This document shows positions 19,775 through 55,835 of a DNA stretch of 64,000 nt, piece by piece. The translations under genes were made by a program, and so were the position numbers. The stretch comes from Dictyostelium discoideum. Taxonomy: Eukaryota. The notes below the pieces were generated by a model. It was not told the origin of the DNA, ran no database searches, and was given only the letters and a program-made list of their open reading frames with translations. The stretch lies in the NCBI GenBank assembly GCA_000004695.1, contig CM000151.3, forward strand, positions 5,088,001-5,152,000. The letters are read 5' to 3'. The first letter of the stretch is position 1; the number at the start of each line of letters is the position of its first letter.

Positions 19775-20935
19775 ATGGATAGACGTGATTATAGTAAGGA
19801 AAAATACAAATATGGAGATAATGATAAAGATAGGCGTTTTTCAAATGATAAAATAAGACATAATTTCGACGAATTTACGATGCCCTCGAATGATCGTAGA
19901 GATAGAGATAAAGACATAGATAGGTACAGAGATCGATATAGAGATAGAGATAGATATAGAGATAGAGATAGAGATAGAGATAGAGATAGAGATAGAGAAA
20001 GAGAAAGAGAAAGAGAAAGAGAAAGAGAAAGATCACGGTCACCAAATAGGAATTATAGTAGAAATAACAATAGTAGTAGTTATAATAGTAATAATAGTAG
20101 CAGTAGCTTTGATGACGGGTATAAATATAGAGATATGGATAGGGAAAGAGATAAATACAGAGAAAATAAAAGATTTGATAGTTCAAGAAATAATGAAGAT
20201 CATAGGTCATCGATTAGGCCGCTATCTTATGATGGATATGATGATGATGATTATGGACGTTCAAAGAGGAATAAAACTGAACAATATTTAAAAGAAATGG
20301 TAGCTTCAAATGGTAATCAAAAGAGAGAAAGATTAGAGGATAGTATACCTGATTTACCAGAGAATAGAGAGGCAAGAGAATTCTTAAGAAATGCTCCAAC
20401 TAAAGGTTTACATCAACCATTAGGAAAAGAAGTTAAAGTTATGCAATGTTGGAAATGTAAATTCTATGGTCATAGAGCAATAGAATGTACTCAAACTAAT
20501 CCAATTGCTGAATATGAAAAATTAAAAAGAGAAGATCCAATGATTCAATATAATGATCATGATGATTTTGGTTTTAATAATAATAAAAACAATAATATAA
20601 ATAATAATAATAATAATAATAATAATAATTTTATTCATAAAGATAGAATTAATAAAATAAATAATACTAATGATGAGAATAATGATAATAATAATAAAAT
20701 GAATAAAAGACAAAAAAAATTAAAACAGCTTCAAGAATTATTAGCAAGAGCAGAGGAAAATGAGAGAAAAAGGAAAGAGAAGAAAAGAAAAAGAAAAGAA
20801 AAGAAAAAAATCAAAGCCAGTAAAAAATCTCATCATCGTCATAGTAGCGATAGTGATAGTAGTGGTGGTGGTAGTAGTGATAGTGATAGTGATCTCAGCA
20901 AAGACGAGAGTTATTCAAGTAATGAAAGTGAATAA
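19775..20935 (+). CDS. CCHC zinc-knuckle protein with RD/RE/RS dipeptide repeats (splicing-factor-like, ZCCHC10-like)
   Basis: Single ORF of 386 aa. (RD)n(RE)n tract is encoded by (AGAGAT)n(AGAGAA)n at 19930-20040. One CX2CX4HX4C knuckle (CWKCKFYGHRAIEC). Lys/Arg-rich and Ser-rich C-terminus. Confidence 0.75.
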   Translation: MDRRDYSKEKYKYGDNDKDRRFSNDKIRHNFDEFTMPSNDRRDRDKDIDRYRDRYRDRDRYRDRDRDRDRDRDRERERERERERERSRSPNRNYSRNNNSSSYNSNNSSSSFDDGYKYRDMDRERDKYRENKRFDSSRNNEDHRSSIRPLSYDGYDDDDYGRSKRNKTEQYLKEMVASNGNQKRERLEDSIPDLPENREAREFLRNAPTKGLHQPLGKEVKVMQCWKCKFYGHRAIECTQTNPIAEYEKLKREDPMIQYNDHDDFGFNNNKNNNINNNNNNNNNNFIHKDRINKINNTNDENNDNNNKMNKRQKKLKQLQELLARAEENERKRKEKKRKRKEKKKIKASKKSHHRHSSDSDSSGGGSSDSDSDLSKDESYSSNESE

Positions 20936-21550: not shown

Positions 21551-21824
21551 AAAACAAAAATAATTAATAAATAATTTGGTGAAGGGATTTTTGATAGGAA
21601 TTCGGTAGTTTCCAAAATGTTTTATCAAAAAAAAAATAAAATAAAATAAAAAAAAATTAATTAATTTCATTGGTTAGTAGTTTCTTCATTATTATTTTTT
21701 TTTTTTTTTTTTTTTTTTAATTGTTGGTAAAAAATTGATTCCCCAAAAAAAAAAAAAATTAAAAATAAAAAGTGTTAGGGAAATCTGTTTGTTTTATTTA
21801 GTTTAATAGTATGTATACAATGGG

Positions 21825-21884
<60 letters not shown>

Positions 21885-22510
21885 ATTTTATTTTATATTT
21901 TTTTTTTATTTTTTTTTTTTATTATTTTTTTTTTTATAAAAATTATATAACAACATATGTACTAGTTGTAAATTAAATTATTTGTTTAAAAATTAATTAA
22001 TTATTTATTTATTTATTTATTTATTAAAAGTTGTTTTTTTTATTTGTTCTTTTTATTTATTTTACATTTTCATTGCAAAAAATTCAAATCAAAACTTTTT
22101 TTTTTTTATAAGGTAAATAATTTTTTAAACAGTGTCAACTATTATTATTTTTTTTTCCACTTGTTCACTAAAATCTCCAAAAAAAAAAAAAAAAAAAAAA
22201 CACAAAGAGTAATTAAATCTCCAACTTACGTACGAAACATCAAAATCTTTTTTTTCATTTGTTCAAAATATTATTAAATAAAAAAAGAATAAAAAAATAA
22301 AAATTTTACTAAATTTCATTCAATATTTAAATTAGTAAATTTTTTTTCCAACTTCTGTTTTTTTTTCAAAAAAAAAAAAAAATTAAATTAATTATTTCCC
22401 AAACCTAATCTTTTTTTTTTTTTTTTCTATAATTTAAAACCAGACAAACTTTCTAAAAAAAAAAAATCCTTATTTAATAATAATAATAATTATAATAATA
22501 CTATTTCAAA

Positions 22511-22829
22511 ATGACATTTAATAATATTAAAGACGAAAATAACGATGATATTGCCATCATTGGTATGGGTTTCCGTTTTCCAGGTGGTGGTAATAATCCA
22601 GATCAATTTTGGAATCAATTATCAAATAAAATGGATGGTATTTCAAAGATTTCTCAAGAAAAATGGTCAAGATCTTTTTATGAACAAAAATATATAAATA
22701 ACGAATATGGTGGTGTCTTAAAAGATGAAGAATGGAAAAATTTTGATCCATTATTTTTTGGTATTTCACCAAAAGAAGCACCAACCATTGATCCACAACA
22801 ACGTCTTTTAATGACAACACTTTGGGAAG
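22511..22829 (+). CDS. type I iterative reducing polyketide synthase, copy A, exon 1 of 2 (KS N-terminus)
   Basis: [26 protein letters not shown]...[14 protein letters not shown] is the canonical KS start. Donor GTAAAT at 22830. Confidence 0.9.
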
Positions 22830-22912
22830 GTAAATAATAATAATAATTATAATTATAATAATAGTAGTATTTTTTTTTGTTAAAATTAAAAAGTTATTAA
22901 TATATATACATA

Positions 22913-22970
<58 letters not shown>

Positions 22971-22972
22971 AG

Positions 22973-25900
22973 CATTTGAAGATGCAAATATTAAACCATC
23001 AACATTACGTGGATCAGATACAGCAGTATTTATTGGTATGATGAATCTTGATTATCAAAGATGTCAATTCAGAGATATATCATATATTAATCCGTATACA
23101 GTTACTGGTAGTGCAGGATCATTTGTATCAAATCGTTTAAGTTTTAGTTTTGATTTACGTGGTCCATCAATGACACTTGATACAGCATGTTCATCATCAT
23201 TGAATGCAGTTTATCTTGGTTGTCAAGCTATTGCAACTGGTGATAGTAAGATGGCAATTGTTGGTGGTGTCAATGGTATTTTCGATCCAAGTATTTCAAT
23301 GACATTCTCTGGATTAAATATGTTGGGACACAAAGGTCAATGTAGATCATTCGATGCTGGTGCTGATGGTTACATCCGTAGTGAAGGTGGTGGTGTTTGT
23401 ATCCTAAAGAAATATTCAGATGCAATTAAAGATGGTGACCGTATTTATTGTGTTATCAAAGGTGGTAGTTCAAATGTTGATGGATACAATGCAAAGACCA
23501 ATATCACTCAACCATCAATGAAGGCTCAAGGTGAAAACATTGAAATTGCTTTAAAGAAATCTGGTGTAAATCCATCAGATATCTATTATATAGAAGCTCA
23601 TGGTACTGGTACACCAGTTGGTGATCCGATTGAAATTGAAGCAATATCAAGAATATTCAAAGATAATCATACACCCGATGCTCCATTGTACATTGGTTCA
23701 GTTAAAAGCAACATTGGTCATCTTGAAAGTGCTGCCGGTATTGCATCATTAATCAAAGTTGCACTCTCTTTAAAAAATCGTTCATTGGTTCCAAATATTC
23801 ATTTTGAAAAACCAAATCCATTAATCAAATTCGAAGATTGGAATATTCGTGTAGTCACTGATGAAATCCAGTTCCCAACCAATAAATTAATTAATATGGG
23901 TATTAATTGTTTTGGTCTATCTGGTTCAAATTGTCATATGATTCTAAGTGAAGCACCAATTAATTATGATGAATTATTGAAAACAACAAATAATAACTCT
24001 ACATCCTCTTCTTCAAATGATGATAAAAAAGAATATTTAATACCATTTTCAGCAAACTGTAATATTTCATTAGATAAATATATAGAGAAATTAATTTCAA
24101 ACCAATCTATTTATAAAGATACAATATTATTTAAAGATTTTGTAAAACATCAAACAATTTCAAAATCAAATTTAATAAAGAGAAAAGTTATAACCGCTTC
24201 CGATTGGGATGACTTTTTAAATAAAAGAAATGAAACTACATCAACTTCATCATTGACTTCAACAATTTCAGCACCAGCTTCATCAACTCCAGTCATTTAT
24301 GTTTTCACCGGTCAAGGCCCACAATGGAGAGATATGGGTAAAGCATTATATGAAACTGAATCAGTATTTAAAGATGCCATTGATCATTGTGATAAATTAC
24401 TTGCTAATTATTTTGGATATTCAATACTCCAAAAGTTACGTTCATTAGAAAGTGATGATTCACCAGAAATTCATCATCCAATTTTAGCACAACCAAGTAT
24501 TTTCTTAATTCAAGTTGGTTTAGTCGCACTTTATAAATCATTTGGTATTTCACCATCAATTGTAGTTGGTCATAGTTTTGGTGAAGTTTCATCCGCTTTA
24601 TTCTCTGGTGTCATCAGTTTAGAAACTGCTGTTAAAATCGTTTACTATAGAGGCTTAGCTCAAAATTTAACAATGGGAACTGGTAGATTATTATCAATTG
24701 GTATCGGTGCTGATGCTTATCTTGAAAAATGTGCTTTATTATATCCAGAAATTGAAATAGCTTGTTATAATGATCCAAATTCAATTGTTATTACTGGTTC
24801 TGAACAAGATTTGTTAGGTGCTAAATCAACACTATCAGCTGAAGGTGTTTTTTGTGCTTTCTTAGGTACACCATGTTCTTTCCACTCATCAAAACAAGAA
24901 ATGATTAAAGAAAAGATATTCAAAGATTTATCAGATTTACCAGAATCAAATGTACCATGTGTACCATTCTTTTCAACAATTACTGGTTCACAATTATCTC
25001 ATAAAGGTTTCTACAATGTTCAATACATTTATGATAATTTACGTATGCCTGTTGAATTCACCAAAGCCATTTCAAACATTTTCAATTTCATTGAAGAAAA
25101 TGAATCATACAAGAATGCAATCTTTTTAGAGATTGGTCCTCATCCAACTTTAGGTTTTTATATTCCAAAATGTAAACCATCAAATTCAACAATAACTTCA
25201 AAACCAATTATAGTATCACCATTACATAAAAAGAAAGAAGAATTAACACAATTTAAATTAGCAATTTCAACTCTATATTGTAATGGTGTTGAAATTGATT
25301 TTGCAAGTGGTCAACAATTATTACCAACTTCTTCTTCATCCGGAGGTGGCGATATATCATCATTTAAAGAGTCGACAAATAAATTACCAAGATACCAATG
25401 GGATTTTGAAGAATATTGGGATGAACCAAACCAAAGTAAAATGGTAAAACGTGGTCCATCAAATAATTTATTAGGTCATGATCAATTTGCAGGTAATACT
25501 TTAATGGAATTATTTATTGATATTAATAAATCTGCTCATCAATATCTAAAAGGTCATAAAATTAAAGGTAAATATCTTTTCCCAGGTTCTGGTTATATTG
25601 ATAATATTCTTCGTCAATTCAATGGTCAAGATATTACCATTTTCAATTTAGAATTTTCAAATCCATTCTTTTTGAAAGATGGTGTTCAACATCATTTACA
25701 AACTTCAATTACACCAACTACCAAGGGTGAATTTAAAGTTGAATTCTTTATAAAGGATAATAGAAACTCAACTAAATGGACTAAAACTTCAAATGGTCGT
25801 ATTGGATTATTCAAACATAATCCAAAGAATAATAAATTGGATATTGAAAAACTTAAAAGTCAATGTTCATTTACCACCCTTACAAAGTCTGAAGTTTACA

Positions 25901-28900
25901 ATAAGCTATTGTTATTAAGTTTACCATATGGTCCAACTTTCCAAAGAGTTGAATCATGTTCAATTGGTGATGGATGTTCATTCTTTAAACTTTCAATGTC
26001 ACCTTGTTCAGAGTTTGACAAAGATTTCTTAAATCCTTCAATTATTGATTGTGCATTCCATGGTTTATTAGTACTCAGTGAAGGTCCACAAGAGATTGTT
26101 TTCGATCGTTTACAAGATATGAAATTCTATTCTTCAAATGTACCTTCAACAAGACCTCAATTCATTTATGCCTTTGCTAAATTCGATAAAATTGTAGGAA
26201 ATTCAACTCATGGTTCTCTAGATATCATGTTAGAAGATGGTACATTATTAATTTCAATTAAAAATGTTAAATGTACATCATTAATACGTTTAAAGAAACA
26301 ATCAATTAAATATCCTTCACAAAATGTTTATTCACACCATTGGCAATCAAAAGATTCACCATTAACTTTAATTGAAAATCAATTAATTGAAGAGAAATCA
26401 TCAGAATCTAAAATTAATTTTGAAAAATTATTAAATGATAAATTATTTAATGATTATTTAATTAGATTATTAAACCAATCAATTAAATCTGAATTTATAG
26501 AATTCGATTATAAAACTTCAACAGTAGATACTTTAGAAATTGATTCAAATAATACAAAACTATTAGAAAAGATTCAATCAATTTTAAAAACAATTGATTC
26601 ATTAGATCAATCAATTGATTTAGCTAGTTTAAAACAAGTAATTATTGAAAAATCATCATCATTTAAAAAAGAAATTAATTTAATTGAAAAATCAATCAAA
26701 CGTATTGTTTCATTATTAAAAGGTGGTGAAAGTGAACATTTTTCACCAAGTAATCCAAGTTCACCAAATGACACACCAAGATATAATTCAAACAATTGTT
26801 CTTCAAAGAGTAATAATACCTCTAGTGGTGCTGATGATGATACTAACAATGAAGAAACAATTAATCAATTAAATAATGAACCATTTAATTTCTCAAATTC
26901 TCAATTCATTTCAAATCAAAATCAATTAATTTCAAAAACAATTGTAAATTCATTTGATAGATTAATTAATTCGATTGAAATTGGCGAAAAGAAATTAATT
27001 AAAATAATTGATTTATCAAGTATCTATCAAAATAATCAACTTTCAAAATTATTATTATTACAATTAAATCAATTACTAATTAATTTATCAAATAATAATA
27101 ATATTGAAATTGAATATACAATTCCATCAAATACCAAAAATATTGATTCAATTAAAGAAGAAACTAAATCGATTTCAAATTTATTAAATATTAAATATCG
27201 TAGTTTTGATTTACAAGATGATTTAGAAAGTAATGGTTATTTAAATTCAAATTATGATTTAATTATAACTTCTTTATTATTAGTTTCAACAAACTCAATT
27301 GATTCAAATGAAGTTTTATCAAAACTTTATAAATTATTATTACCAAAAGGTCAATTAATTTTAATGGAACCACCAAAGGATGTATTATCATTCAATCTTT
27401 TATTTGCAAATGATTTCAAACAATCATTAGAAATTAAAAGTGAACAAGAAATTAAATCATTAATTAGATATTGTGGTTTCACTAAAATTGAAACAAATAA
27501 TATTACCCAAGATGATGAAGAAGAACAACAACAACCACCATCAATTTTAATAGTTCAAACTGAAAAGAGAGATATTGAATCAATGTCATTGACTTTCTCA
27601 TCAGATCCAGAATCATTAAATTCTTCATATAGTAATTGTATATTCATAGTTTCAAAAGAACAAAAAGAAAATCCAACTTCATATATTCAAGAATATTTTG
27701 ATATTACTGAAGTATTCTGTGATAACACTACAATTATTGAAGCTGGTGATAGTGAATTATTAACAAAGACAATTGAATCAGGTATTGGTAAAAATGATAT
27801 TATTTTCTTTTTAGTTTCACTTGAAGAATTAACAATTGAAAATTATAAACAAGTTACAATGCAATATACATTAGTTAATCAAATACTTTTAAGAAATAAT
27901 CTTTCAACTAGATTTGCTTTATTAACTTACGATTCTCAAAATGGTGGTAAAAATTATTTAGGATCATCATTAATTGGTACTTTTAGATACTTTTTAGAAT
28001 TTCCATCATTGAATACCTTTTCAATTGATGTCGATAAAGATTCAATTGATAATCTTACATTATTCTTACGTTTAGTTGATCTATCTACAATTGGTGATAG
28101 AGAAACTATTGTTAGAAATAATAAAATTTTTGTTCAAAAGATTTTCAAAGAGCCAAAATTGTTATCACCATCAAATAATTACGAAAAGGATACAAATAAT
28201 TTATATTTGAATACAAATAGTAATTTAGATTTTTCATTCCAATGCAAAGAGAAATTACCACATGGTTCCGTCGAAATTAAAGTTATGTCAACTGGTATCA
28301 ACTATAAAGATAATCTTTTCTATAGAGGTTTATTACCACAAGAAATCTTTACAAAAGGTGATATTTATTCTCCACCATTCGGTTTAGAATGTGCTGGTTA
28401 TATTACACGTGTTGCACCAAGTGGCGTTACTCGTTTCAAAGTTGGTGATCAAGTTGTTGGTTTTGCAAGCCATTCTTTAAGTTCACTAGCTATTACTCAT
28501 CAAGATAAAATTGTATTAAAACCTGAAAATATTTCATTCAATGAAGCTGCTGCCGTTTGTGTAGTTTATGCAACAAGTTATTATTCAATTTTCCATATTG
28601 GTGCATTTATGGCCGATAAAGAATCAATCCTAGTTCATTCTGCAACTGGTGGTGTTGGTTTAGCAACTTTAAATCTTTTAAAATGGAAGAGAAATCAATT
28701 GAAAAAACATGGCAACTCTGAAATTAGTAATGATGCTTCAATTTATGCTACAGTGGGTTCTAAAGAAAAAGTCGATTATTTACAAGAGAAATATGGTGAT
28801 TTAATAACTGCAATTTACAATAGTAGAGATACTGAATATTGCGATGAAATTAAACAACAATCAGCACAAGGAGGTGTAGATTTAATTTTAAATACACTCT

Positions 28901-30465
28901 CTGGTGATTATTTATCTGCAAATTTCCGTTCACTTTCCCAAGTTGGTAGAATTATGGATTTATCAGTCACTCAATTGGTTGAAAATGATTCATTAGATTT
29001 TTCAAACTTTAAGTATCATGTTACTTACAGTACAATCGATTTAGAAAGAGCTACAACATATAATTCAAAAATCGTTAGAGATATCCTCACAGAAGTATTT
29101 GATGCAATTTCTGATGGTAGTCTTGAAAATATTCCAGTTAAAGTTTTCCCAGCAACTCAAGTTAAAACTGCGATTGAATATATTAATGAACGTGTTCATA
29201 TTGGTAAAATTGTAGTTGATTTTGAAAACTTTGAACAAGATATTCTTAAACCAGCTTTACAAGAGAAAGAAAATCCAATTCAATTGAATAAAGTTAAAAA
29301 ATTGGAACATACTTGTGATACTTTAAATAATACAATTTTAATCACTGGTCAAACTGGTATTGCTGTTCATATTTTAAAATGGATTATTTCTGGTTCTGTT
29401 TTAAATTCAAATAAATCACAACAACAAGTAACAGATTTCATAATTTTATCAAGATCATCATTAAAATGGGAACTTGAAAATTTAATTAATCAAACTAAAC
29501 ATAAATATGGTGATAGATTTAGATTCCATTATAAATCTGTAAATATTGCAGATTTAAATTCAACTCGTACTGCAATTGATCAAGTTTATTCAAGTTGTAA
29601 AAATGTTTCACCAATTAAATCAGTATTACATTTTGCAACAGTTTATGAATACATTTTACCAGAAGATATCACTCAAACCGTAATTGATAATACTCATAAT
29701 CCAAAAGCAGTCGGTGCAATTAATTTACATAATCTTTCAATTGAAAAAGATTGGAAATTAGAAAACTTTATTCTCTTTTCATCAATTGGTGCTATCATTG
29801 GTGGTTCAAAACAATGTGCATATAGTAGTGCTAATTTAGTATTGGATTCATTATCAAACTATAGAAAGAGTATTGGTCTTGCTTCAACTTCAATTAATTG
29901 GGGTGGTTTGGATGCTGGTGGTGTTGCCGCCACTGATAAATCAGTCGCAAGTTTCTTAGAGGGTCAAGGTATTTTATTGGTTTCTTTATCAAAGATTTTA
30001 GGTTGTCTTGATTCAGTTTTCCAACCATCTAATTCCCATTTATCAAACTTTATGCTTTCAAGTTTCAATATTGATAATCTTTTATCTTCTGCACCTCAAA
30101 TGAAGAGAAAAATGGGTCACCACCTAACAAATTATAAAACTTCATCTGCTAGCTCTGATGATTCATTGGGTGATTCTAGTTCTACTCAAGCAAAAGTCAT
30201 TTCTACAATCTCTGAATTATTATCAATTCATCCATCAAAATTAAATTTAGATACAAGATTAAAAGACTATGGTATTGATTCTTTATTAACAGTACAATTA
30301 AAGAATTGGATAGATAAAGAATTTACAAAGAATTTATTCACTCATTTACAATTATCATCAAGTAGTATTAATAGTATCATTCAGAGAATTAGTTCAAAAT
30401 CAACTTCAACATCTACTCCCAATCCAACTAACACCACAAAACAAACCGCAACAACAAAAACATAA
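22973..30465 (+). CDS. polyketide synthase copy A, exon 2 of 2 (about 2603 aa total): KS-AT-DH-(degenerate MT-like)-ER-KR-ACP, no C-terminal release domain
   Basis: Acceptor AG at 22971-22972. KS active-site [85 protein letters not shown] plus [19 protein letters not shown]. Contains track ORF 23038..30465. Confidence 0.9.
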
Positions 30466-30779
30466 GTAGTTCAAACAACTCCAACTACATTTGACACTTC
30501 TATGTTTATTCCATATTTAAAAAATTAAAAAAAAAAAATTAATAAAAAAAATTAAAAATATCTTTTAATATTAATACTTAAAAATTCTTGAACTATATTT
30601 ATTAAAAAAAAAAATTACCTTTAACCAATTTAAAAAAAAAACAAAAAAATAATAATAGTGTACAAATAAAAGAAATAATTAAAAAAAAAACAAAAAAAAT
30701 AATATTAATATTAAAGAAATGGAAAAAAAAAAAAAAAAGTGTTTAGCAAAGTTTTTTTTTTTTTTTTTTATTTGGCAAT

Positions 30780-31372
30780 GATTTTACCGAATAACGATAC
30801 GATGTTGAGTGGTAACATTATTACCAAGTTTTTCGAGATAGGTTTGGTTGTTTTTCTAAAATTTATTTAACATCTGATGTAAAACCTGCTTGTTTTTCAA
30901 CTGCTGCTTTAACAATTGCTGATACCTCTTTATCTTTGTTTTAATACTAATAAATATTCCTCTTTTTTTTTTATTGTTTAAAATAATGGTTAGTTTTTAT
31001 TAAAAAAAATTTAAAAATTTAAAACTTACTTTGATGTGTTTTAACTTGGCATGCTAATGAATAAATTTCAATACCATTGGTATTTTTCAAGAGATTATCT
31101 ATTATGATTTGAGCCAATCCATAGAATTAACTTGTTTAACCAAGAATTTTTTACCATTCTGGTACTTTTTTCAATGGTGCCATAACTTCTGGTTTATTTT
31201 GATGAACAAGGTATGCATTAACATGTGCTATTCAAGTGGCAATGTATGGTTTATTTTGATAAACTTGATCTTCCTTCTTAAAAATTTAATATTGTTAATT
31301 CTTATTAATATCATTGTGGAAATCCATTTGATCTTCAAGATATTTACTATGTTGACTAGAGATGGATTTTGA
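30780..31372 (-). pseudogene. decayed inverted partial copy of the NAA15 3' end (exon 7-like 30780-30960 and exon 6-like 31081-31372), pseudogene relic inside the duplicated PKS arm
   Basis: Reverse complement of 31081-31372 aligns to NAA15 exon 6 (45113-45539) with substitutions and a roughly 90-nt deletion. Reverse complement of 30780-30960 aligns to NAA15 exon 7 (45720-45905). No intact frame. Track ORF 31109..31372 is its antisense read-through, which explains its similarity to track ORF 45197..45436. Confidence 0.65.
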
Positions 31373-31567
31373 GAAAGATCACGGTCACCAAATAGGAATT
31401 AAAATTTTAATTTTCTGGTCGTTTGTTGTGTTTTTAATTTGTTTTTGATTTTTTTTTTTTTTTAATTTTTTTTTTTTTTTTTTTTTTTTTTTGACACTTT
31501 GGTGTTTTTGATTTTTTTTTGATTTTTTTTTTTATATTTTATTTAATTTTAAATTTTTTGAAACACA

Positions 31568-32433: not shown

Positions 32434-33567
<1,134 letters not shown>

Positions 33568-35647: not shown

Positions 35648-36263
35648 TATTATTTGTGGTTGTAGTTGTAGTTGTAGTTGTGGTGGTTGATGAACCATTT
35701 ACACCAACTTTGTTATTTTCATTATTATTATTATTGTTGTTATTATTATTATTTACATTAATTTCATTGATATTGGTAAGAAATGATTTATCTGGTGATA
35801 TGGATAGAATTGAAGAATTTCTTAATTCCTCAATTGAAAATGATTGATTCTCTTTCAATGATTGATGAAGTTTGTGGAATAATACTAACTCTTTTTCACC
35901 TGGTTTAATTTGATTTGCTGATTTGATCATATTTTGAATAAAATCTCTATCACTATTATTATTATTACTATTACTATTATTGGGTATGTTGGTGTCTTTA
36001 TTTGTATTATTTATAAGACTTTCAAAATAATTGGAATATTTATTTATTCCATTATTATTATTATTATTATTGCTATTGCTATTGCTATTGCCATTGTTTT
36101 TATTATTGTTATTGTTATTGTTATTGTTATTGTTATTGTTATTGTTATTGTTATTGTTATTGTTATTGTTATTGTTATTGTTATTGTTATTGTTATTGTA
36201 ATTGTTATTGTTATTGTTATTGTTATTGTTATTATTTAAATTTTCATTACCAGAAATAGTGTG

Positions 36264-36327
<64 letters not shown>

Positions 36328-36359
36328 TTATTTAATTCGGTGGAATATTGAGCTCCCAT
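33678..36359 (-). CDS. wrky1: WRKY transcription factor, exon 1 of 2 (894 aa; extreme poly-Asn/poly-Gln/acidic low complexity; N-terminal WRKY domain at its 3' end)
   Basis: ATG at 36359 (MGAQYST..). WRKYGQK plus C-X4-C...H-X-H zinc finger ([41 protein letters not shown]). GTATGT donor immediately after GAT (plus-strand acatac, 33672-33677). Confidence 0.85.
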
Positions 36360-45112: not shown

Positions 45113-45539
45113 AATCATCTTGAATACCTTGAAGATCAAATGGATTTCCATAATCATATTAATAAGAAATTAACAATGAGATCATATATTGAATTTTTAA
45201 GATGGGAAGATCAAGTTTATCAAAATAAACCATACATTGCCACTGGAAAAGCACATGTTAAAGCATACCTTAATCATCAAAATAAACCAGAAGTTATGGC
45301 ACCATTGAAAAAAGTACCAGCAATTAAGAAACCAGCACCAAAACCATCTCAATTGGAACCAAAGAAAGATCCAAACACTGGTCTCACCATTCCAGAGGAT
45401 GACGATTTGAATGGTAAAAAGTTCTTGGTTAAACAAGTTAATCTCATGGATTCAGCTCAACTCATTTTAGATAATCTCTTGAAAAATACAAATGATATTG
45501 AAATTTATTCATTAGCTTGCCAAGTTAATACACATCAAA
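45113..45539 (+). CDS. NAA15, exon 6 of 7
   Basis: Acceptor AG at 45111-45112. ..MRSYIEFLRWEDQVYQNKPYIATGKAHV.. Donor GTAAGT at 45540. Phase-1 end. Contains track ORF 45140..45571. Confidence 0.8.
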
Positions 45540-45644
45540 GTAAGTTTAAATTTTTAAAATATTTTTTTTAAATATTTTTATTTTTTTACATATATATATA
45601 AACTAACCTTTATTATTTTTTAACAATAAAAAAAAAAAATATAG

Positions 45645-46105
45645 AGAAATATTTATTAGTATTAAAATCATTGGTTAAAATTAAATCAATTAATGAAAAT
45701 AGTCCATGTTATTATGAAAATTTAGTTGATTTAATGATTAAAGTATCAGAAGATAAAGAGGTATCAGCAATTGTTAAAGCAGCAGTTGAAAAACAAGCAG
45801 GTTTTTCATCAGATGTTGAATCAATTTTAGCAAACAACCAAACTTATCTCGAAAAACTTGGTGACAATGTTACCGCTCAACATCGTTTCGTTGTTGGTAA
45901 AATCATTGCCAAACTTTCACCATCATCACTTGATAAAGCATCAGAATTGATTTTGAATGTTCAAGGTGAAACAAGTTGGAAACAATGCGCTGACAACCTT
46001 CAATCTCTTTCTCTTGTATCTTCCGAACTCACTTCTAAATACAGAGAAAAATTACACGAACATTTCCCAATTGCTAACTATTTCCAACCAAAAGTTGAAA
46101 ATTAA
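45645..46105 (+). CDS. NAA15, exon 7 of 7 (stop 46103-46105)
   Basis: Acceptor AG at 45643-45644 (a+ag=AAG). Contains track ORF 45671..46105. Confidence 0.75.
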
Positions 46106-46434
46106 TTCAAAATAAAAAAAATAATAATAATGAATAATAAATAATAATCAATTTAAAAATAAACTAATCAATAAATAAATTTAACAAAAAAAAAAAAAAA
46201 ACTTTTCTAAACACTTTTTTTTAATTATTTCTTTTATTTGTACATTATTATTATTTTTTTGTTTTGTAAATTTGGTTAAAGGTAATTTATTTTTTAATCA
46301 AATAATTGAGTTAAAGAATCCAAATGAGATTTTAATTTTTAAGTATTAATATTAAAAGATAATTTTTTTTTTTTTTTTTTTTTTAATTTTTAAAAGATGG
46401 AATAGTCAAGTATAGTTGGAGTTATTTGAACTAC

Positions 46435-49400
46435 TTATGTTTTTTTTGTTGCGGTTTGTTTTGAGGTGTTAGTTGGATTGGGAGTAGATGTTGAAGTTGA
46501 TTTTGAACTAATTCTCTGAATGATACTATTAATACTACTTGATGATAATTGTAAATGAGTGAATAAATTCTTTGTAAATTCTTTATCTATCCAATTCTTT
46601 AATTGTACTGTTAATAAAGAATCAATACCATAGTCTTTTAATCTTGTATCTAAATTTAATTTTGATGGATGAATTGATAATAATTCAGAGATTGTAGAAA
46701 TGACTTTTGCTTGAGTAGAACCAGAATCACCCAATGAATCATCAGAACTAGCAGATGAAGTTTTATAATTTGTTAGGTGGTGATCCATTTTTCTCTTCAT
46801 TTGAGGTGCAGAAGATAAAAGATTATCAATATTGAAACTTGAAAGCATAAAGTTTGATAAATGGGAATTAGATGGTTGGAAAACTGAATCAAGACAACCT
46901 AAAATCTTTGATAAAGAAACCAATAAAATACCTTGACCCTCTAAGAAACTTGCGACTGATTTATCAGTGGCGGCAACACCACCAGCATCCAAACCACCCC
47001 AATTAATTGAAGTTGAAGCAAGACCAATACTCTTTCTATAGTTTGATAATGAATCCAATACTAAATTAGCACTACTATATGCACATTGTTTTGAACCACC
47101 AATGATGGCACCAATTGATGAAAAGAGAATAAAGTTTTCTAATTTCCAATCTTTTTCAATTGAAAGATTATGTAAATTAATTGCACCGACTGCTTTTGGA
47201 TTATGAGTATTATCAATTACGGTTTGAGTGATATTTTCTGGTAAAATGTATTCATAAACTGTTGCAAAATGTAATACTGATTTAATTGGTGAAACATTTT
47301 TACAACTTGAATAAACTTGATCAATTGCAGTACGAGTTGAATTTAAATCTGCAATATTTACAGATTTATAATGGAATCTAAATCTATCACCATATTTATG
47401 TTTAGTTTGATTAATTAAATTTTCAAGTTCCCATTTTAATGATGATCTTGATAAAATTATGAAATCTGTTACTTGTTGTTGTGATTTATTTGAATTTAAA
47501 ACAGAACCAGAAATAATCCATTTTAAAATATGAACAGCAATACCAGTTTGACCAGTGATTAAAATTGTATTATTTAAAGTATCACAAGTATGTTCCAATT
47601 TTTTAACTTTATTCAATTGAATTGGATTTTCTTTCTCTTGTAAAGCTGGTTTAAGAATATCTTGTTCAAAGTTTTCAAAATCAACTACAATTTTACCAAT
47701 ATGAACACGTTCATTAATATATTCAATCGCAGTTTTAACTTGAATTGCTGGGAAAACTTTAACTGGAATATTTTCAAGACTACCATCAGAAATTGCATCA
47801 AATACTTCTGTGAGGATATCTCTAATAATTTTTGAATTATATTTCGTAGCTCTATCTAAATCTATTGTATTGTAGCCAACATGATACTTAAAGTTTGAAA
47901 AATCTAATGAATCATTTTCAACCAATTGAGTGACTGATAAATCCATAATTCTACCAACTTGGGAAAGTGAACGGAAATTTGAAGATAAATAATCACCAGA
48001 GAGTGTATTTAAAATTAAATCTACACCTCCTTGTGCTGATTGTTGTTTAATTTCATCGCAATATTCAGTATCTCTACTATTGTAAATTGCAGTTATTAAA
48101 TCACCATATTTCTCTTGTAAATAATCGATTTTTTCTTTGGAACCCACTGTAGCATAAATTGAAGCATCATTACTAATTTCAGAGTTGCCATGTTTTTTCA
48201 ATTGATTTCTCTTCCATTTTAAAAGATTTAAACTTGCTAAACCAACACCACCAGTTGCAGAATGAACTAGGATTGATTCTTTATCGGCAATAAAAGCACC
48301 AATATGGAAAATTGAATAATAACTTGTTGCATAAACTACACAAACGGCAGCAGCTTCATTGAATGAAATATTTTCAGGTTTTAATACAATTTTATTTTGA
48401 TGAGTTGTAACATGTGAACTTAAAGAATGGCTTGCAAAACCAACAACTTGATCACCAACTTTGAAACGAGTAACGCCACTTGGTGCAACACGTGTAATAT
48501 AACCAGCACATTCTAAACCGAATGGTGGAGAATAAATATCACCTTTTGAAAAGACTTCTTGTGGTAATAAACCTCTATAGAAAAGACTATCTTTATAATT
48601 GATACCAGTTGACATAACTTTAATTTCGACGCAACCATGCAGTAATTTCTCTTTGCTTTGGAATGAAAAATCTAAATTACTATTTGAATACAAGAATAAA
48701 TTATTTGTATTCTTTTCATAATTATTTGATGGTGATAACAATTTTGGCTCTTTGAAAATCTTTTGAACAAAAATTTTATTATTTCTAACAATAGTTTCTC
48801 TATCACCAATTGTAGATAGATCAACTAAACGTAAGAATAATGTAAGATTATCAATTGAATCTTTATCTACATCAATTGAAAAGATATTCAATGACCGAAA
48901 TTCTAAAAAGTATCTAAAAGTACCAATTAATGATGATCCTAAATAATTTTTACCACCATTTTGAGAATCGTAAGTTAATAAAGCAAATCTAGTTGAAAGA
49001 TTATTTCTTAAAAGTATTTGATTAACTAATGTATATTGCATTGTAACTTGTTTATAATTTTCAATTGTTAATTCTTCAAGTGAAACTAAAAAGAAAATAA
49101 TATCATTTTTACCAACACCTGATTCAATTGTCTTTGTTAATAATTCACTATCATCAGCTTCAATAATTGTTGCATTTTGACAGAAAAATTCAGTAATATC
49201 AAAATATTCTTGAATATATGAAGTTGGATTTTCTTTTTGTTCTTTTGAAACTATGAATATACAATTACTATATGATGAATTTAATGATTTTGGATCAGAT
49301 GAGAAAGTTAATGACATTGATTCAATATCTCTCTTTTCAGCTTGAACTATTAAAATTGATGGAGGAGGTGGTTGTTGTTGTTCTTCATCATCTTTAGTAT

Positions 49401-52400
49401 TAAGATTTGTTTCAATTTTAGTGAAACCACAATATATAATTAATGATTTAATTTCTTGTTCACTTTTAATTTCTAATGATTGTTTGAAATCATTTGCAAA
49501 TAAAAGATTGAATGATAATACACCCTTTGGTGGTTCCATTAAAATTAATTGACCTTTTGGTAATAATAATTTATAAAGTTTTGATAAAACTTCATTTGAA
49601 TCAATTGAGTTTGTTGAAACTAATAATAAAGAAGTTATAATTAAATCATAATTTGAATTTAAATAACCATTACTCTCTAAATCATCTTGTAAATCAAAAC
49701 TACGATATTTAATATTTAATACATTTGAAATCGATTTAGTTTCTTCTGTAATTGAATCAATATTTTTGGTATTTGATGGAATTGTATATTCAATTTCAAT
49801 ATTATTATTATTTGATAAATTAATTAGTAATTGATTTAATTGTAATAATAATAATTTTGAAAGTTGATAATTTTGATAGATACTTGATAAATCAATTATT
49901 TTAATTAATTTCTTTTCGCCAATTTCAATTGAATTAATTAATCTATCAAATGAATTTACAATTGTTTTTGAAATTAATTGATTTTGATTTGAAATGAATT
50001 GAGAATTTGAGAAATTAAATGGTTCATTATTTAATTGATTAATTGTTTCTTCATTATTAGTATCATCATCAGCATCGTCAGAAGAGGCAGCATTATTCTT
50101 TGAAGAACAATTGTTTGAATTATTTCTTGGTGTATCATTTGGTGAACTTGGGTTACTTGGTGAAAAATGTTCACTTTCACCACCTTTTAATAATGAAACA
50201 ATACGTTTGATTGATTTTTCAACTAATTTAATTTCATTTTTAAATGATGATTTTACAATAATTGCTTGTTTTAAACTAGTTATATCAATTGATTGATCTA
50301 ATGAGTCTATTGGGTTTAAAATTGATTGAATCTTTTCTAATAGTTTTGCATTTTTTGAACCAATATCTAAAGTATCTACTGTTGAAGTTTTATAATCGAA
50401 TTCTATAAATTCAGATTTTATTGATTGGTTTAATAATCTAATTAAATAATAATTAAATAATTTATCATTTAATAATTTTTCAAAATTAATTTTAGATTCT
50501 GATGATTTCTCTTCAATTAATTGATTTTCAATTAAAGTTAATGGTGAATCTTTTGATTGCCAATGGTGTGAATAAACATTTTGTGAAGGATATTTAATTG
50601 ATTGTTTCTTTAAACGTATTAATGATGTACATTTAACATTTTTAATTGAAATTAATAATGTACCATCTTCTAATATGATATTAAGAGAACCATGAGTAGA
50701 ATTACCTTCAATTTTATCGAATTTAGCAAAGGCATAAATGAATTGAGGTCTTGTTGAAGGTACATTTGAAGAATAGAATTTCATATCTTGTAAACGATCG
50801 AAAACAATCTCTTGTGGACCTTCACTGAGTACTAATAAACCATGGAATGCACAATCAATAATTGAAGGATTTAAGAAATCTTTGTCAAACTCTGAACAAG
50901 GTGACATTGAAAGTTTAAAGAATGAACATCCATCACCAATTGAACATGATTCAACTCTTTGGAAAGTTGGACCATATGGTAAACTTAATAACAATAGCTT
51001 ATTGTAAACTTCAGACTTTGTAAGGGTGGTAAATGAACATTGACTTTTAAGTTTTTCAATATCCAATTTATTATTCTTTGGATTATGTTTGAATAATCCA
51101 ATACGACCATTTGAAGTTTTAGTCCATTTAGTTGAGTTTCTATTATCCTTTATAAAGAATTCAACTTTAAATTCACCCTTGGTAGTTGGTGTAATTGAAG
51201 TTTGTAAATGATGTTGAACACCATCTTTCAAAAAGAATGGATTTGAAAATTCTAAATTGAAAATGGTAATATCTTGACCATTGAATTGACGAAGAATATT
51301 ATCAATATAACCAGAACCCGGGAAAAGATATTTACCTTTAATTTTATGACCTTTTAGATATTGATGAGCAGATTTATCAATATCAATAAATAATTCCATT
51401 AAAGTATTACCTGCAAATTGATCATGACCTAATAAATTATTTGATGGACCACGTTTTACCATTTTACTTTGGTTTGGTTCATCCCAATATTCCTCAAAAT
51501 CCCATTGGTATCTTGGTAATTTATTTGTTGATTCTTTAAATGATGATATATCGCCACCTCCGGATGAAGAAGAAGTTGGTAATAATTGTTGACCACTTGC
51601 AAAATCAATTTCAACACCATTACAATATAGAGTTGAAATTGCTAATTTAAATTGTGTTAATTCTTCTTTCTTTTTATGTAATGGTGATACTATAATTGGT
51701 TTTGAAGTTATTGTTGAATTTGATGGTTTACATTTTGGAATGTAAAAACCTAAAGTTGGATGAGGACCAATCTCTAAAAAGATTGCATTCTTGTATGATT
51801 CATTTTCTTCAATGAAATTGAAAATGTTTGAAATGGCTTTGGTGAATTCAACAGGCATACGTAAATTATCATAAATGTATTGAACATTGTAGAAACCTTT
51901 ATGAGATAATTGTGAACCAGTAATTGTTGAAAAGAATGGTACACATGGTACATTTGATTCTGGTAAATCTGATAAATCTTTGAATATCTTTTCTTTAATC
52001 ATTTCTTGTTTTGATGAGTGGAAAGAACATGGTGTACCTAAGAAAGCACAAAAAACACCTTCAGCTGATAGTGTCGATTTAGCACCTAGCAAATCTTGTT
52101 CAGAACCAGTAATAACAATTGAATTTGGATCATTATAACAAGCTATTTCAATTTCTGGATATAATAAAGCACATTTTTCAAGATAAGCATCAGCACCGAT
52201 ACCAATTGATAATAATCTACCAGTTCCCATTGTTAAATTTTGAGCTAAGCCTCTATAGTAAACGATTTTAACAGCAGTTTCTAAACTGATGACATCAGAG
52301 AATAAAGCGGATGGAATTTCACCAAAACTATGACCAACTACAATTGATGGTGAAATACCAAATGATTTATAAAGTGCGACTAAACCAACTTGAATTAAGA

Positions 52401-53930
52401 AAATACTTGGTTGTGCTAAAATTGGATGATGAATTTCTGGTGAATCTTCACTTTCTAATGAAAGTAACTTTTGGAGTATAGAATATCCAAAATAATTAGC
52501 AAGTAATTTATCACAATGATCAATGGCATCTTTAAATACTGATTCAGTTTCATATAATGCTTTACCCATATCTCTCCATTGTGGGCCTTGACCAGTGAAA
52601 ACATAAATGACTGGAGTTGATGAAGCTGGTGCTGAAATTGTTGAAGTCAATGATGAAGTTGATGTAGTTTCATTTCTTTTATTTAAAAAGTCATCCCAAT
52701 CGGAAGCTGTTATAACTTTTCTCTTTATTAAATTTGATTTTGAAATTGTTTGATGTTTTACAAAATCTTTAAATAATATTGTATCTTTATAAATAGATTG
52801 GTTTGAAATTAATTTCTCTATATATTTATCTAATGAAATATTACAATTTGCTGAAAATGGTATTAAATATTCTTTTTTATCATCATTTGAAGAAGAGGAT
52901 GTAGAGTTATTATTTGTTGTTTTCAATAATTCATCATAATTAATTGGTGCTTCACTTAGAATCATATGACAATTTGAACCAGATAGACCAAAACAATTAA
53001 TACCCATATTAATTAATTTATTGATTGGGAACTGGATTTCATCAGTGACTACACGAATATTCCAATCTTCGAATTTGATTAATGGATTTGGTTTTTCAAA
53101 ATGAATATTTGGAACTAATGAACGATTTTTTAAAGAGAGTGCAACTTTGATTAATGATGCAATACCGGCAGCACTTTCAAGATGACCAATGTTGCTTTTA
53201 ACTGAACCAATGTACAATGGAGCATCGGGTGTATGATTATCTTTGAATATTCTTGATATTGCTTCAATTTCAATCGGATCACCAACTGGTGTACCAGTAC
53301 CATGAGCTTCTATATAATAGATATCTGATGGGTTTACACCAGATTTCTTTAAAGCAATTTCAATGTTTTCACCTTGAGCCTTCATTGATGGTTGAATGAT
53401 ATTGGTCTTTGCATTGTATCCATCAACATTTGAACTACCACCTTTGATAACACAATAAATACGGTCACCATCTTTAATTGCATCTGAATATTTCTTTAGG
53501 ATACAAACACCACCACCTTCACTACGAATGTAACCATCAGCACCAGCATCGAATGATCTACATTGACCTTTATGTCCTAACATATTTAATCCAGAGAATG
53601 TCATTGAAAAACATGGATCGAAAATACCATTGACACCACCAACAATTGCCATCTTACTATCACCATTTGCAATGGCTTGGCAACCAAGATAAACTGCGTT
53701 CAATGATGATGAACATGCTGTATCAAGTGTCATTGATGGGCCACGTAAATCAAAACTAAAACTTAAACGATTTGATATAAATGATCCTGCAGTACCAGGA
53801 GTTATATAAGGATTCACATATGATATATCTCTGAATTGACATCTTTGATAATCAGTATTCATCATACCAATAAATACTGCTGTATCTGATCCACGAAATG
53901 TTGATGGTTTAATATTTGCATCTTCAAATG
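46435..53930 (-). CDS. polyketide synthase copy B, exon 2 of 2 (about 2604 aa total), near-identical inverted paralog of copy A
   Basis: Track ORF 46435..53865 extended to acceptor AG (plus-strand ct, 53931-53932). Same KS-AT-DH-MT-like-ER-KR-ACP order. About 95-97% aa identity to copy A, with differences such as [15 protein letters not shown] versus [15 protein letters not shown] and a 1-aa indel. Confidence 0.9.
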
Positions 53931-53938
53931 CTTTTTTT

Positions 53939-53978
<40 letters not shown>

Positions 53979-54036
53979 CTTTTTAATTTATAATATTTAA
54001 TTATTATTATTATTATTATTTATAATTATTATATAC

Positions 54037-54355
54037 CTTCCCAAAGTGTTGTCATTAAAAGACGTTGTTGTGGATCAATAATTGGTGCTTCTTTTGGTGA
54101 AATACCAAAAAATAATGGATCAAAATTTTTCCATTCTTCATCTTTTAAGACACCACCATATTCGTTATTTATATATTTTTGTTCATAAAAAGATCTTGAC
54201 CACTTTTCTGTAGGAATCTTTGAAATACCATCCATTTTGTTTGATAATTGATTCCAAAATTGATACGGATTATTTCCACCACCTGGAAAACGGAAACCCA
54301 TACCAATAATGGCAATATCATCATTATTTTCATCTTTAATATTATTAAATGTCAT
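54037..54355 (-). CDS. polyketide synthase copy B, exon 1 of 2
   Basis: Track ORF 54029..54355 ([26 protein letters not shown]..). Donor GTATAT (plus-strand 54031-54036) after TGG GAA G, mirroring copy A. Confidence 0.9.
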
Positions 54356-54610
54356 TTTTAAATAGTTATAAACTATTATTATTATCTAAGGATTTTTTTT
54401 TAAAAAATTTGACTGGTTTAAAATTAAATTTAATATAGAAAAAAAAAAAAAAAAGGAATTTGATTTTTTTTATAAACTAAAAACAAAAGTTGGAAAAAAT
54501 AAATTTACTAATTTAAATATTGAATGAAATTTAGTATAATTTTTATTTTTTTATTTAATTTATAATATTTTGAAAAAAAAAAAATTTTGATGGAGATTTG
54601 TGTTATTAGT

Positions 54611-54660
<50 letters not shown>

Positions 54661-55835
54661 CTCCTTTGGGGAGATTTTTATAAACAAATAGAGAGAAAAA
54701 TAATAATAGTTGACAATGCGACATCAATTTTGGGTGACAAAAGTGTTATGTTTTTTAAAGGTATTTCATATCGTATTGGTTGTTGAGGCTGATTTCACTA
54801 AAATTAGTTGACTTTATGTTGGAGTTGATAACTAGGCGAAGATTGTGGTGATTGTGGTGGGATTACTTTAATATTTAATTATTAATAAAAATCTTTTAGT
54901 AATTAAAATATATAAACATAAGTTTATAAAATGGTGCCCCTAAAGAAATTTAATTTAATTTGAAAATAATTAAAAATAATAATTTGCAGACAAACTCCAT
55001 TTTACAATATATTAAATAAATTGGTAAAATCCTATTTAATACATTAATATTTATTAAAATAAACTATAAGTTAAATTTAATACAAAAAAAATTAAGTTAA
55101 TAAACTGTACTTTTTAAAAATAAATAATTATACATATGGAACAAAATGATATATTGAATTAATTTTATTTATCAATGTGTTTAAGAAATGAATTATTATA
55201 TTTTTTTAGTTAATATAATTAATAAATTTAATAAGTTAATAGTATAAATAGTGTTTTATAAATAAATAATTGTAACTAAACAATTCAATTAATTATTAAT
55301 TGTTTTTACTTTAAAAATAAAATAAAAATTATTTTATACATAAATAAAAAGAACAAAATAAAAATAACTTTTAAATAAATTATTAACTTTAAATTTACAA
55401 TAGGAGAATATGTTGTTATAATTTTTATAAAAATAAAATAATAAAATTGAAAATAAAAAAAAAAATGTTATTTATTATTTTTTATTTTTTTTTTTAATTT
55501 CCCATATATACTAAACAAAAAAAATAGATGCAAAAAAATAAAAAAATATAATAAAAAAATAAAAGAATAAAAAAAATAAAATATACCTGGCAAACGGACA
55601 ATATAACCATTATAAAAAAAACCTTTATTATTATTTTTTTTTTATTGATATTATTATAAAAAAAAAAAAAAAAAAACAGTTTTAAAATAAATTATTTTTT
55701 ACATTTATTTATATACATTTTTACTTGTTTTTTGGTAGTAAATATTTGGATTGTGAATTTTAATGGAAGAAATTTAAATATATAGAATAAAGGAAAACAT
55801 TTAAAAAAATAGTAAAGATGAAAATGGACTACAGA

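Follow-up and report, generated by a model that had tools for sequence, protein, structure and literature searches.

The 64,000-nucleotide stretch analysed here, hereafter called the window, comes from chromosome 2 of Dictyostelium discoideum AX4 (contig CM000151.3 of assembly GCA_000004695.1, positions 5,088,001 to 5,152,000, forward strand). It contains two closely similar polyketide synthase (PKS) genes, pks16 and pks17, together with NAA15, the gene for the auxiliary subunit of NatA. Downstream of pks16, the minus strand of 30771-31352 is an unprocessed and disabled pseudogene fragment of NAA15. It is very probable that this locus was formed by a tandem duplication, after which the truncated NAA15 copy decayed neutrally, the two PKS copies were homogenised by gene conversion, and a block carrying one of them was inverted in the NC4 lineage. 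The original prediction, made from the sequence of the window by itself, had recognised the NAA15 relic as the boundary of a duplication and had contrasted its decay with the conservation of the PKS copies.

The window was compared with the corresponding loci of D. citrinum (L001), D. firmibasis (L002), two wild isolates of D. discoideum (L003 and L005; assemblies GCA_054859385.1 and GCA_054859355.1) and D. cf. discoideum (L004; GCA_054859205.1). On the side of the FAHD and kinase genes, the wild D. discoideum loci L006 and L007 were reached by using a single-exon RidA-like open reading frame (ORF; 60814-61239) as the query. L008 is an independent assembly (GCA_054883475.1), 99.6% identical to the window over 13 kb, and its Pks16 and Pks17 proteins are identical to those of AX4. 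All of these further genomes except D. firmibasis appear to come from the long-read set of PMC12745789.

A disabled fragment of NAA15

In self-BLAST of the window, the relic was aligned with the 3' end of NAA15 in three minus-strand blocks, 30771-30936 with 45913-45750 (92.8% identity, E=4e-63), 30939-31159 with 45667-45409 (79% with gaps, E=2e-59) and 31159-31344 with 45320-45123 (88.9%, E=5e-68). The G+C content of the window is about 22%, and the original prediction had left room for a likeness no better than that between low-complexity A/T-rich sequences. The local alignment score against the NAA15 3' region was 774.5, compared with 40.4 +/- 5.3 for 200 dinucleotide shuffles (z=138), indicating that the similarity is not noise of A/T-rich DNA. 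Exon 6 of the parent gene matches the Pfam family PF12569 (NatA_aux_su, E=2.6e-15), and the NAA15 orthologues in the five other genomes (L001-L005) are annotated with the same family. Since intron 6 is retained in the relic (Table 1), the fragment is a copy made at the DNA level and not derived from mRNA. A processed pseudogene (retrocopy) was rejected on this ground and also on the contiguity of the relic with the co-duplicated PKS 3' flank.

Over its whole length the relic differs from NAA15 at 34 of 572 aligned bases (5.9%), with 16 gap events. These values were obtained by affine-gap pairwise alignment, which was preferred to a MAFFT global alignment of the arms that misplaced the A/T-rich 3' untranslated region (UTR) and gave 8-11% relic mismatch. 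Four sizeable deletions were identified, of 89, 79, 10 and about 266 nt. The 89-nt deletion (45321-45409 of arm B missing) and the 10-nt deletion lie in exon 6, together with 1-nt indels and two nonsense changes; the 79-nt deletion is internal to exon 7, which also carries one nonsense change (TCA>TAA). The deletion of about 266 nt removed the last 64 codons (192 nt of coding sequence, CDS), the stop codon and part of the 3' UTR. With three nonsense substitutions and several frameshifts in all, the relic has no open frame. The many substitutions, the deletion of roughly 90 nt and the loss of the frame had been described correctly from the window; the 79-nt, 10-nt and 266-nt deletions are additions to that description.

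The assignment of the two exons was also correct, and their limits needed adjustment. Exon 7 had been placed at 30780-30960 and exon 6 at 31081-31372; they occupy 30771-30959 and 31028-31352, the earlier span of exon 6 starting about 50 nt late and ending 20 nt too far. The segment 31353-31404, counted previously as NAA15 relic, is derived from another gene, the upstream gene described below. The similar peptides of ORFs 31109..31372 and 45197..45436, which include FWYFFQWCHNFWFILMNKVCINMC and CWYFFQWCHNFWFILMIKVCFNMC, respectively, are antisense reads of the exon 6 relic and of exon 6 itself, as had been proposed. NAA15 homology stops within roughly 10 nt of the start of exon 6, exons 1-5 being absent from the relic, and in the other direction the 3' UTR and the intergenic DNA are co-linear in both arms as far as the PKS genes.

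The 31 exonic substitutions are distributed 15/6/10 over codon positions 1/2/3 and comprise 20 missense, 3 nonsense and 8 synonymous changes. Since the duplication, 57 changes took place on the relic lineage versus 7 on the NAA15 lineage. The alignment of several relics inflated distances at ragged ends, and counts were limited to exonic columns and to sites with a clear ancestral state. From the codon-position pattern and the 57 versus 7 changes, we infer that the relic decays neutrally.

When 45907-45920 and 46196-46215 were compared with 30760-30775, the terminal deletion of about 266 nt was seen to be bounded by short direct repeats, CAAACTTT and AAAACTTTTC, which suggests an origin by microhomology or replication slippage.

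The junction of a head-to-tail duplication

Both D. citrinum and D. firmibasis carry a single PKS gene, in the order STAT-like gene, two genes, PKS (+), GST (+), NAA15 (-), PWP1-like gene (-) and ketoacyl synthase (KAS; -), and their left flank is the left flank of the window. No relic was found within the 28-kb locus of either species, and among the protein search matches and in these loci each species has a single PKS cluster at >=85% identity. The two wild isolates and D. cf. discoideum have two PKS copies in tandem, PKS (+) followed by PKS (+), and then NAA15 (-), PWP1 (-) and KAS (-). The relic sits between the tandem copies, after copy 1 (L005 8099-8600; L003 8443-9002); in D. cf. discoideum only the relic end is left at this position (L004 9486-9601). 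The search for the relic in other strains and sister species that had been recommended thus gave its presence in both wild isolates, its end in D. cf. discoideum and its absence from the outgroup loci.

The relics of AX4 and the two wild isolates have 11 substitutions in common, as well as the deletions of 89 and 79 nt and several of 1 nt, and each also has private changes. Because these deletions and substitutions are found in all three, the relic is one old inherited fragment.

Immediately beyond the relic lies a short piece of the upstream gene, a 386-aa ORF without a Pfam family. Positions 31371-31401 agree with 20025-20055 inside this ORF at 31 of 31 bases, and the flanking (GATAGA/GAAAGA)n context matches as well. 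The source of 31353-31411 also lies inside the orthologous upstream gene in D. citrinum and D. firmibasis. An origin of this segment from intron 5 or exon 5 of NAA15 was rejected, given the match to the upstream gene. The junction between the relic and the upstream-gene fragment is identical in AX4, L003, L004 and L005. Since the junction joins the end of NAA15 exon 6 to the upstream-gene fragment, the event was evidently a head-to-tail duplication of about 11.4 kb, approximately 19930-31352. The larger part of the duplicated upstream-gene fragment was later lost by deletion; of its downstream region, pieces remain at 55389-55676, which is colinear with L005 8600-9008 in the reverse orientation.

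The relic was therefore predicted correctly as the boundary of the duplication and as co-duplicated with the PKS gene, since it sits exactly at the unit junction and is co-linear with the PKS 3' flank. The description as two passengers of one event has to be extended to three, because the upstream-gene fragment abuts the relic. In the proposed scheme, the unit of about 11.4 kb, from the upstream gene (~19930) to the start of NAA15 exon 6, would have been duplicated in the ancestor of the D. discoideum clade after the D. citrinum split. The product order would have been intact upstream gene, pks16, NAA15 exon 7-6 fragment, 5'-truncated upstream-gene fragment, pks17 and intact NAA15. Both promoterless junction fragments would then have decayed neutrally by A/T-biased substitutions and deletions, and both whole PKS genes would have stayed intact.

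A 207-aa GST gene is located between PKS and NAA15 in the outgroups (L001 18503-19213; L002 18311-18934). No remnant of it was detected next to either PKS copy at any locus of the D. discoideum clade (in the window, 30466-30770 and 46106-46434), and it was probably lost before the duplication.

Gene conversion between pks16 and pks17

The translated gene model of the first PKS copy (PKS-A, DDB_G0275069) matches XP_643784.1, 'Probable polyketide synthase 16' (2603 aa), exactly, and that of the second (PKS-B, DDB_G0275077) matches XP_643790.1, 'Probable polyketide synthase 17' (2604 aa), exactly; both frames are complete once the short 5' exon is joined to the long ORF. Pks16 has the Pfam domain order KS-AT-DH-ER-KR-ACP, and in other dictyostelids the PKS orthologues carry the annotation of putative fatty acid synthases. 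The two proteins are reported to be 96% identical and differently expressed, pks16 in vegetative cells and pks17 in late culmination, with Pks16 as the essential fatty acid synthase of vegetative cells and Pks17 active late in development (PMC12828403, PMC12625978).

In the window, the two copies form an inverted match, 22130-30688 with 54718-46215, of 95.4% identity over 8.6 kb (self-BLAST), with a mosaic structure. A comparison of the CDSs gave 168 differing sites out of about 7800 (2.15%), besides three in-frame indels of 3 nt each, with a proportion of synonymous differences (pS) of 0.039, a proportion of non-synonymous differences (pN) of 0.017 and dN/dS=0.42 (Nei-Gojobori). Coding identity is about 98% in nucleotides and 96% in protein, and the 5' flanks are about 80-83% identical. 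Divergence in 200-nt windows ranges from 0% to about 7%, and pS of the first 100 codons is 0.14. Stretches of 99.5-100% identity, such as 25170-26169 and 29164-29563, are broken by patches of 5-7%. The differences are clustered (dispersion index 4.3 versus 1.06 expected), and the longest run without a difference measures 610 nt, compared with at most 583 in 2000 permutations; synonymous differences by themselves gave p=0.002. The view of the PKS ORF as almost identical between the arms somewhat overstates the likeness, both for the overall CDS difference and along this mosaic.

The decay of the relic was predicted to differ sharply from that of the PKS gene. The contrast is 2.7-fold when the 5.9% of the relic is compared with the 2.15% of the whole PKS CDS (Fisher p=7e-7), but it shrinks to 1.5-fold against the 3.9% at PKS synonymous sites (p=0.045), and the unconverted parts of PKS are as diverged as the relic. 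This contrast had been presented as direct evidence for purifying selection and/or gene conversion on the PKS portion; both do act, but the comparison inside the window is insufficient, and the proof comes from other genomes and from the mosaic. Within the window, the PKS mosaic suggests conversion and is no proof by itself.

Because all carriers share one junction, the duplication predates the split of AX4, the wild strains and D. cf. discoideum. The distance between the paralogues of one genome should then, in the absence of exchange, be at least as large as the distance between orthologues. The opposite was found. The distance between pks16 and pks17 of AX4 is 0.026, whereas pks16 is 0.036-0.039 from wild copy 1 and pks17 is 0.051-0.056 from wild copy 2; the copies of D. 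cf. discoideum are 0.039 apart, against 0.049-0.075 to their orthologues. The synonymous divergence (dS) is 0.040 between the AX4 paralogues and 0.10-0.14 between orthologues. In the PKS quartet of AX4-A, AX4-B, wild-1 and wild-2, 145 sites group by genome, 42 by copy and 7 crosswise, and quartets with the other two genomes agree with this pattern. Sites grouping by copy occur only in 22400-23600, which holds the promoter, exon 1 and the first part of exon 2, and in 27200-27800. In the corresponding quartet of relic and NAA15, no site groups by genome and 23 group by copy (19 to 1 when the other strain is used), a distribution different from that of PKS (Fisher p=8e-14).

Tracts of 0% divergence are placed differently among the strains, one example being a tract of 1.6 kb (28136-29711) in GCA_054859385.1, so that conversion must have recurred independently. 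Taken together, these genome comparisons show that the PKS copies have been made alike by gene conversion that did not reach the relic. The claim that conversion acts on the PKS portion only thus agrees with the quartets, with the PKS 5' end and promoter and an internal island as additional exceptions. Overall, pks17 is closer to wild copy 1 than to wild copy 2, and the net flow was thus presumably mostly from pks16 to pks17. A third PKS paralogue as the donor of the diverged patches was rejected, the next-closest PKS in the genus being less than 50% identical. In the proposed mechanism, repeated non-reciprocal exchange, separately in each lineage, would re-homogenise most of the PKS length and would spare the promoters and 5' ends, the island at about 27.2-27.8 kb and everything past the 3' UTR, including the relic.

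The island at 27200-27800 corresponds to residues ~1560-1700 of pks16 and to ~49700-49100 in pks17. Copy-specific differences are found there in all four duplication-bearing genomes, with conversion on either side, and it falls in the Anamorsin_N-like/pseudo-methyltransferase region between DH and ER. It may represent functional divergence or a barrier to conversion.

Selection and asymmetry of the two copies

For pks16 compared with D. citrinum, omega was 0.12, and for PKS genes compared with their orthologues it was about 0.12-0.15. After polarisation with the outgroups, 24 synonymous and 16 non-synonymous changes were assigned to pks16, and 23 and 57 to pks17. In the unconverted 5' CDS, dN from D. 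citrinum is 0.003 for pks16 and 0.029 for pks17. Copy 2 lacks the KS C-terminal region in GCA_054859385.1 and carries a 1077-nt deletion and a 2-nt frameshift in D. cf. discoideum (spans compared in Table 1). Judged from these comparisons, purifying selection acts mainly on pks16, where it is strong, and pks17 is under relaxed constraint. The divergence of the promoters agrees with the reported difference in expression between the two genes.

As a tentative idea, which we hold to be possible but rather doubtful, pks17 might persist as an intact gene in the laboratory lineage mainly through repeated overwriting by the essential pks16, with only its promoter and 5' end and the island (~1560-1700) shielded by selection or by a barrier. 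The inversion described below would then end the risk of deletion by unequal crossing-over between the 9-kb repeats, conversion still being possible. If this were true, the reference strain would carry, at an essential fatty-acid-synthase locus, a structural variant that is absent from the tropical wild isolates; copy 2 would be visibly degenerating in two of the three tandem genomes; and conversion from pks17 could complicate the editing of pks16.

An inversion in the AX4 lineage

In the wild strains, the sequence of 30904-31411 runs into the spacer upstream of PKS copy 2 (L005 8099-8600), and this spacer is colinear, reversed, with the window from 55389 down to 46300. On the other side, the FAHD promoter (31405 onwards, reversed) is directly joined to the 3' flank of a kinase gene (55666 onwards; L006; L007 5862-5871). 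The AX4 and wild arrangements thus differ by exactly one two-break inversion of about 24 kb, 31412-55676. The inverted block holds FAHD, WRKY, a mitochondrial-type ketoacyl synthase, the PWP1-like gene, NAA15 and pks17. L008 shows the same pks17(-)-kinase junction as AX4. Because the sister species keep the wild orientation, the AX4 arrangement is taken as derived.

The copies in the window had been called arms, which implies an inverted duplication. This implication of the original prediction has to be abandoned, since the tandem state was found in three genomes and the AX4 layout would result from a later inversion; the inverted orientation is not universal among carriers, as three of the five duplication-bearing genomes are tandem. 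Recombination between the PKS repeats was rejected as the cause of the inversion, because the repeats were direct beforehand and both breakpoints lie outside them. All that the breakpoints have in common in sequence are the short palindromes TTAAAATTTTAA and TTTTAAAA, A/T-rich motifs that carry no significance in this genome. In the last step of the proposed scheme, a block of about 24 kb, from the pks17 upstream spacer to the FAHD promoter, would have been inverted in the NC4-derived lineage (AX4 and L008, probably AX2). The inversion would have turned the direct repeats into inverted 'arms' and split the upstream-gene fragment in two.

Age of the duplication

The relics are 5.9-7.2% diverged from NAA15, nearly all of the change being on the relic lineage. 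Divergence of the unconverted PKS parts is similar, about 4-9% in 5' windows with dS=0.095 in the 5' CDS, which fits one event. Substitutions common to the three D. discoideum relics number 11, versus 10 private to AX4. Because about half of the relic substitutions are thus shared, the duplication should be roughly twice as old as the split of the D. discoideum strains; the split from D. citrinum (dS 0.34), where PKS is single copy, came before it. The relic had been offered as a relative clock for the event. It can serve as such only roughly, as the relic lineages differ about two-fold in private changes.

Weighing of alternative explanations

The layout in AX4, taken by itself, looks like a single inverted duplication, in which fold-back or template switching placed pks17 together with the 3' end of NAA15 at arm A: a spacer of about 14 kb is flanked by the copies, which stand as inverted repeats of about 9 kb, as expected for such an event. 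It is nevertheless very unlikely that this layout is the original one. Three genomes of the clade have the same junction and relic deletions in the tandem arrangement, and NAA15, PWP1 and KAS of the sister species have the orientation of the wild strains relative to the left flank. A single inversion, with both breaks outside the repeats, moreover separates AX4 from the wild order, and the AX4 state needs at least two events from a single-copy ancestor in any scenario. That the inverted layout is instead a misassembly of the repeat-rich AX4 reference is more improbable still. Repeats of 9 kb with 95-100% identity are difficult for Sanger assembly, but both breakpoints are in unique sequence outside the repeats; and because the independent assembly L008 (GCA_054883475.1), from the Nanopore and Illumina set of PMC12745789, shares the pks17(-)-kinase junction with AX4 and is 99.6% identical to it along 13 kb, we consider this error unlikely.

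Two further explanations concern the passengers. PKS is coding and constrained (omega ~0.12-0.15), and its mean synonymous divergence of 3.9% is just 1.5-fold under the 5.9% of the relic, so that purifying selection alone, without conversion, might seem enough to keep the copies alike. This is refuted, with hardly any probability left to it, by the dS of 0.040 between paralogues, far under the 0.10-0.14 between orthologues that split after the duplication. The 145 sites grouping by genome versus 42 by copy, the clustering of synonymous differences (p=0.002) and identical stretches of 400-1600 nt, placed differently in each strain, point the same way. Survival of the relic in three D. discoideum genomes, its position in AX4 between the pks16 3' end and the FAHD promoter, and an 87-aa plus-strand ORF could be read as signs that it was kept for a function, whether as an antisense or regulatory RNA for NAA15, as part of the pks16 terminator or of the FAHD promoter, or as a new small ORF, 31109-31372. 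Such a role is highly improbable. The substitution pattern is neutral (15/6/10; 57 versus 7 changes), further deletions are lineage-specific and the D. cf. discoideum relic is nearly all gone; the plus-strand ORF is merely exon 6 read in antisense and is also present opposite the intact gene; and the neighbour of the relic varies, being the FAHD promoter in AX4 versus the pks17 upstream spacer elsewhere.

Several points weigh against a tandem duplication with neutral relic decay, PKS conversion and a later inversion, the reading that we prefer. The AX4 relic has about half of the private substitutions of the wild relics (10 versus roughly 19-24); this deficit could be due to chance, to differing generation numbers or to misalignment at ragged deletion edges, and limited conversion of the relic before the strain split is also conceivable. 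The paralogue dS of 0.095 in the 'unconverted' 5' CDS (17.5 differences, wide confidence interval) is not above the orthologue dS of 0.10-0.14, as a strict model requires. A second PKS copy in the outgroups was excluded only through a match list of 90% clusters and the 28-kb loci. The order 'tandem first, inversion second' would follow from parsimony over five other genomes, among the genomes compared none of the NC4 lineage was seen in the tandem state, and L008 covers the right-hand junction of the inverted arrangement only. L008 is probably AX2-214, an identity drawn from PMC12745789 and not stated in its record.

Features of the window

The coordinates of the elements discussed above are collected in Table 1.

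Table 1. Positions of the duplicated segments, the relic, the breakpoints and the parent genes in the window (other loci where named)
Feature	Position	Strand	Remarks
Upstream gene, 386 aa, no Pfam family	19775..20935	+	Contains the left edge of the duplication unit at ~19930
Arm A: pks16 with flanks	22130..30770	+	CDS 22511-22829 + 22973-30465, intact, 2603 aa
Relic of NAA15 exon 7, 5' two-thirds	30771..30959	-	Alignment to 45645-45913; 11 mismatches in 187 aligned bases
Relic of NAA15 intron 6	30960..31027	-	Alignment to 45540-45644, including GTAAGT donor and AG acceptor context
Relic of NAA15 exon 6	31028..31352	-	Alignment to 45119-45539; 20 mismatches in 318 aligned bases
Upstream-gene fragment	31353..31411	+	Here the second unit of the ancestral duplication in tandem begins; junction at ~31352/31353
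Left inversion breakpoint	31411..31412	.	Inversion of ~24 kb, AX4 (NC4-derived) lineage
Parent NAA15 3' end	45113..46105	+	Exon 6, 45113-45539; exon 7, 45645-46105 (by translation)
Arm B: pks17 with flanks	46106..54718	-	CDS 54355-54037 + 53930-46435, intact, 2604 aa
Decayed copy of the unit's upstream region	55389..55676	-	Brought by the inversion; 55533-55621 with 21178-21089, 90% identity
Right inversion breakpoint	~55676/55677	.	Inside an A-run
Copy 2 spans compared	pks17 46435-54355; L003 10001-17455; L004 10001-16808		Asymmetry of the copies

Outside the duplication, an HSP20-family gene (182 aa, 59676-60224) lies in a stretch of about 1 kb (59509-60492) that is found in the window and L008 and is absent from the wild loci L006 and L007, a gene presence/absence polymorphism. 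Long AAT/ATT (poly-Asn coding) tracts are located at 14800-14950, 19290-19430, 32540-33190, 36100-36340 and 57330-57690; they give dozens of strong but meaningless self-BLAST matches, unrelated to the duplication.

Comparison with known systems

The close similarity of pks16 and pks17 and their differing expression are already published, and no new mechanism is revealed here. In the papers searched on pks16/pks17 and on conversion of Dictyostelium PKS genes, dictyBase annotation not among them, no report was found of the boundary relic, the tandem origin, the inversion of the laboratory lineage or a formal test of conversion. In general terms, the locus is a resolved textbook case of one duplication with three passengers, of which the two truncated ones decay, whereas the complete gene is retained and homogenised; the relic is an internal neutral yardstick untouched by conversion. 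The inversion of the AX4/AX2 lineage, the exchange of sequence between pks16 and pks17 but not between their promoters, and the relaxed constraint on pks17 matter for the design of knock-outs, for the assignment of peptides and reads, and for the use of AX4 as a synteny reference.

Zucko et al. (2007, Bioinformatics 23:2543) reportedly described clusters of nearly identical D. discoideum PKS genes whose promoters have diverged more than their coding regions, and pks16/pks17 is one such pair. The closest parallel in structure is the human RCCX module, a tandem duplication of STK19/RP, C4, CYP21 and TNX in the major histocompatibility complex, with its edges inside two flanking genes. Truncated TNXA and RP2/STK19P abut at the RCCX junction, C4 and CYP21 are duplicated whole, and the internal paralogues exchange sequence by conversion. 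The NAA15 relic and the upstream-gene fragment can be likened to TNXA and RP2, and pks16/pks17 to the internal genes. The organism and the genes are different, however, and both internal copies are intact in AX4; one allele class carries a secondary inversion here, and the five genomes gave no sign of copy-number variation by unequal crossing-over.

In the homogenisation of its internal genes, the locus resembles the human gamma-globin genes HBG1/HBG2 and the arms of Y-chromosome palindromes, which evolve in concert with conversion tracts ending at gene ends. As in those systems, pks16 and pks17 are a mosaic of near-identical tracts and older diverged patches, the paralogues are closer to each other than to their orthologues, and the promoters and flanks escape. 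In contrast to those systems, the outcome is asymmetric, pks17 having most of the non-synonymous change while being nearer to copy 1 than to copy 2 of other strains, and the two genes keep a copy-specific internal island across strains.

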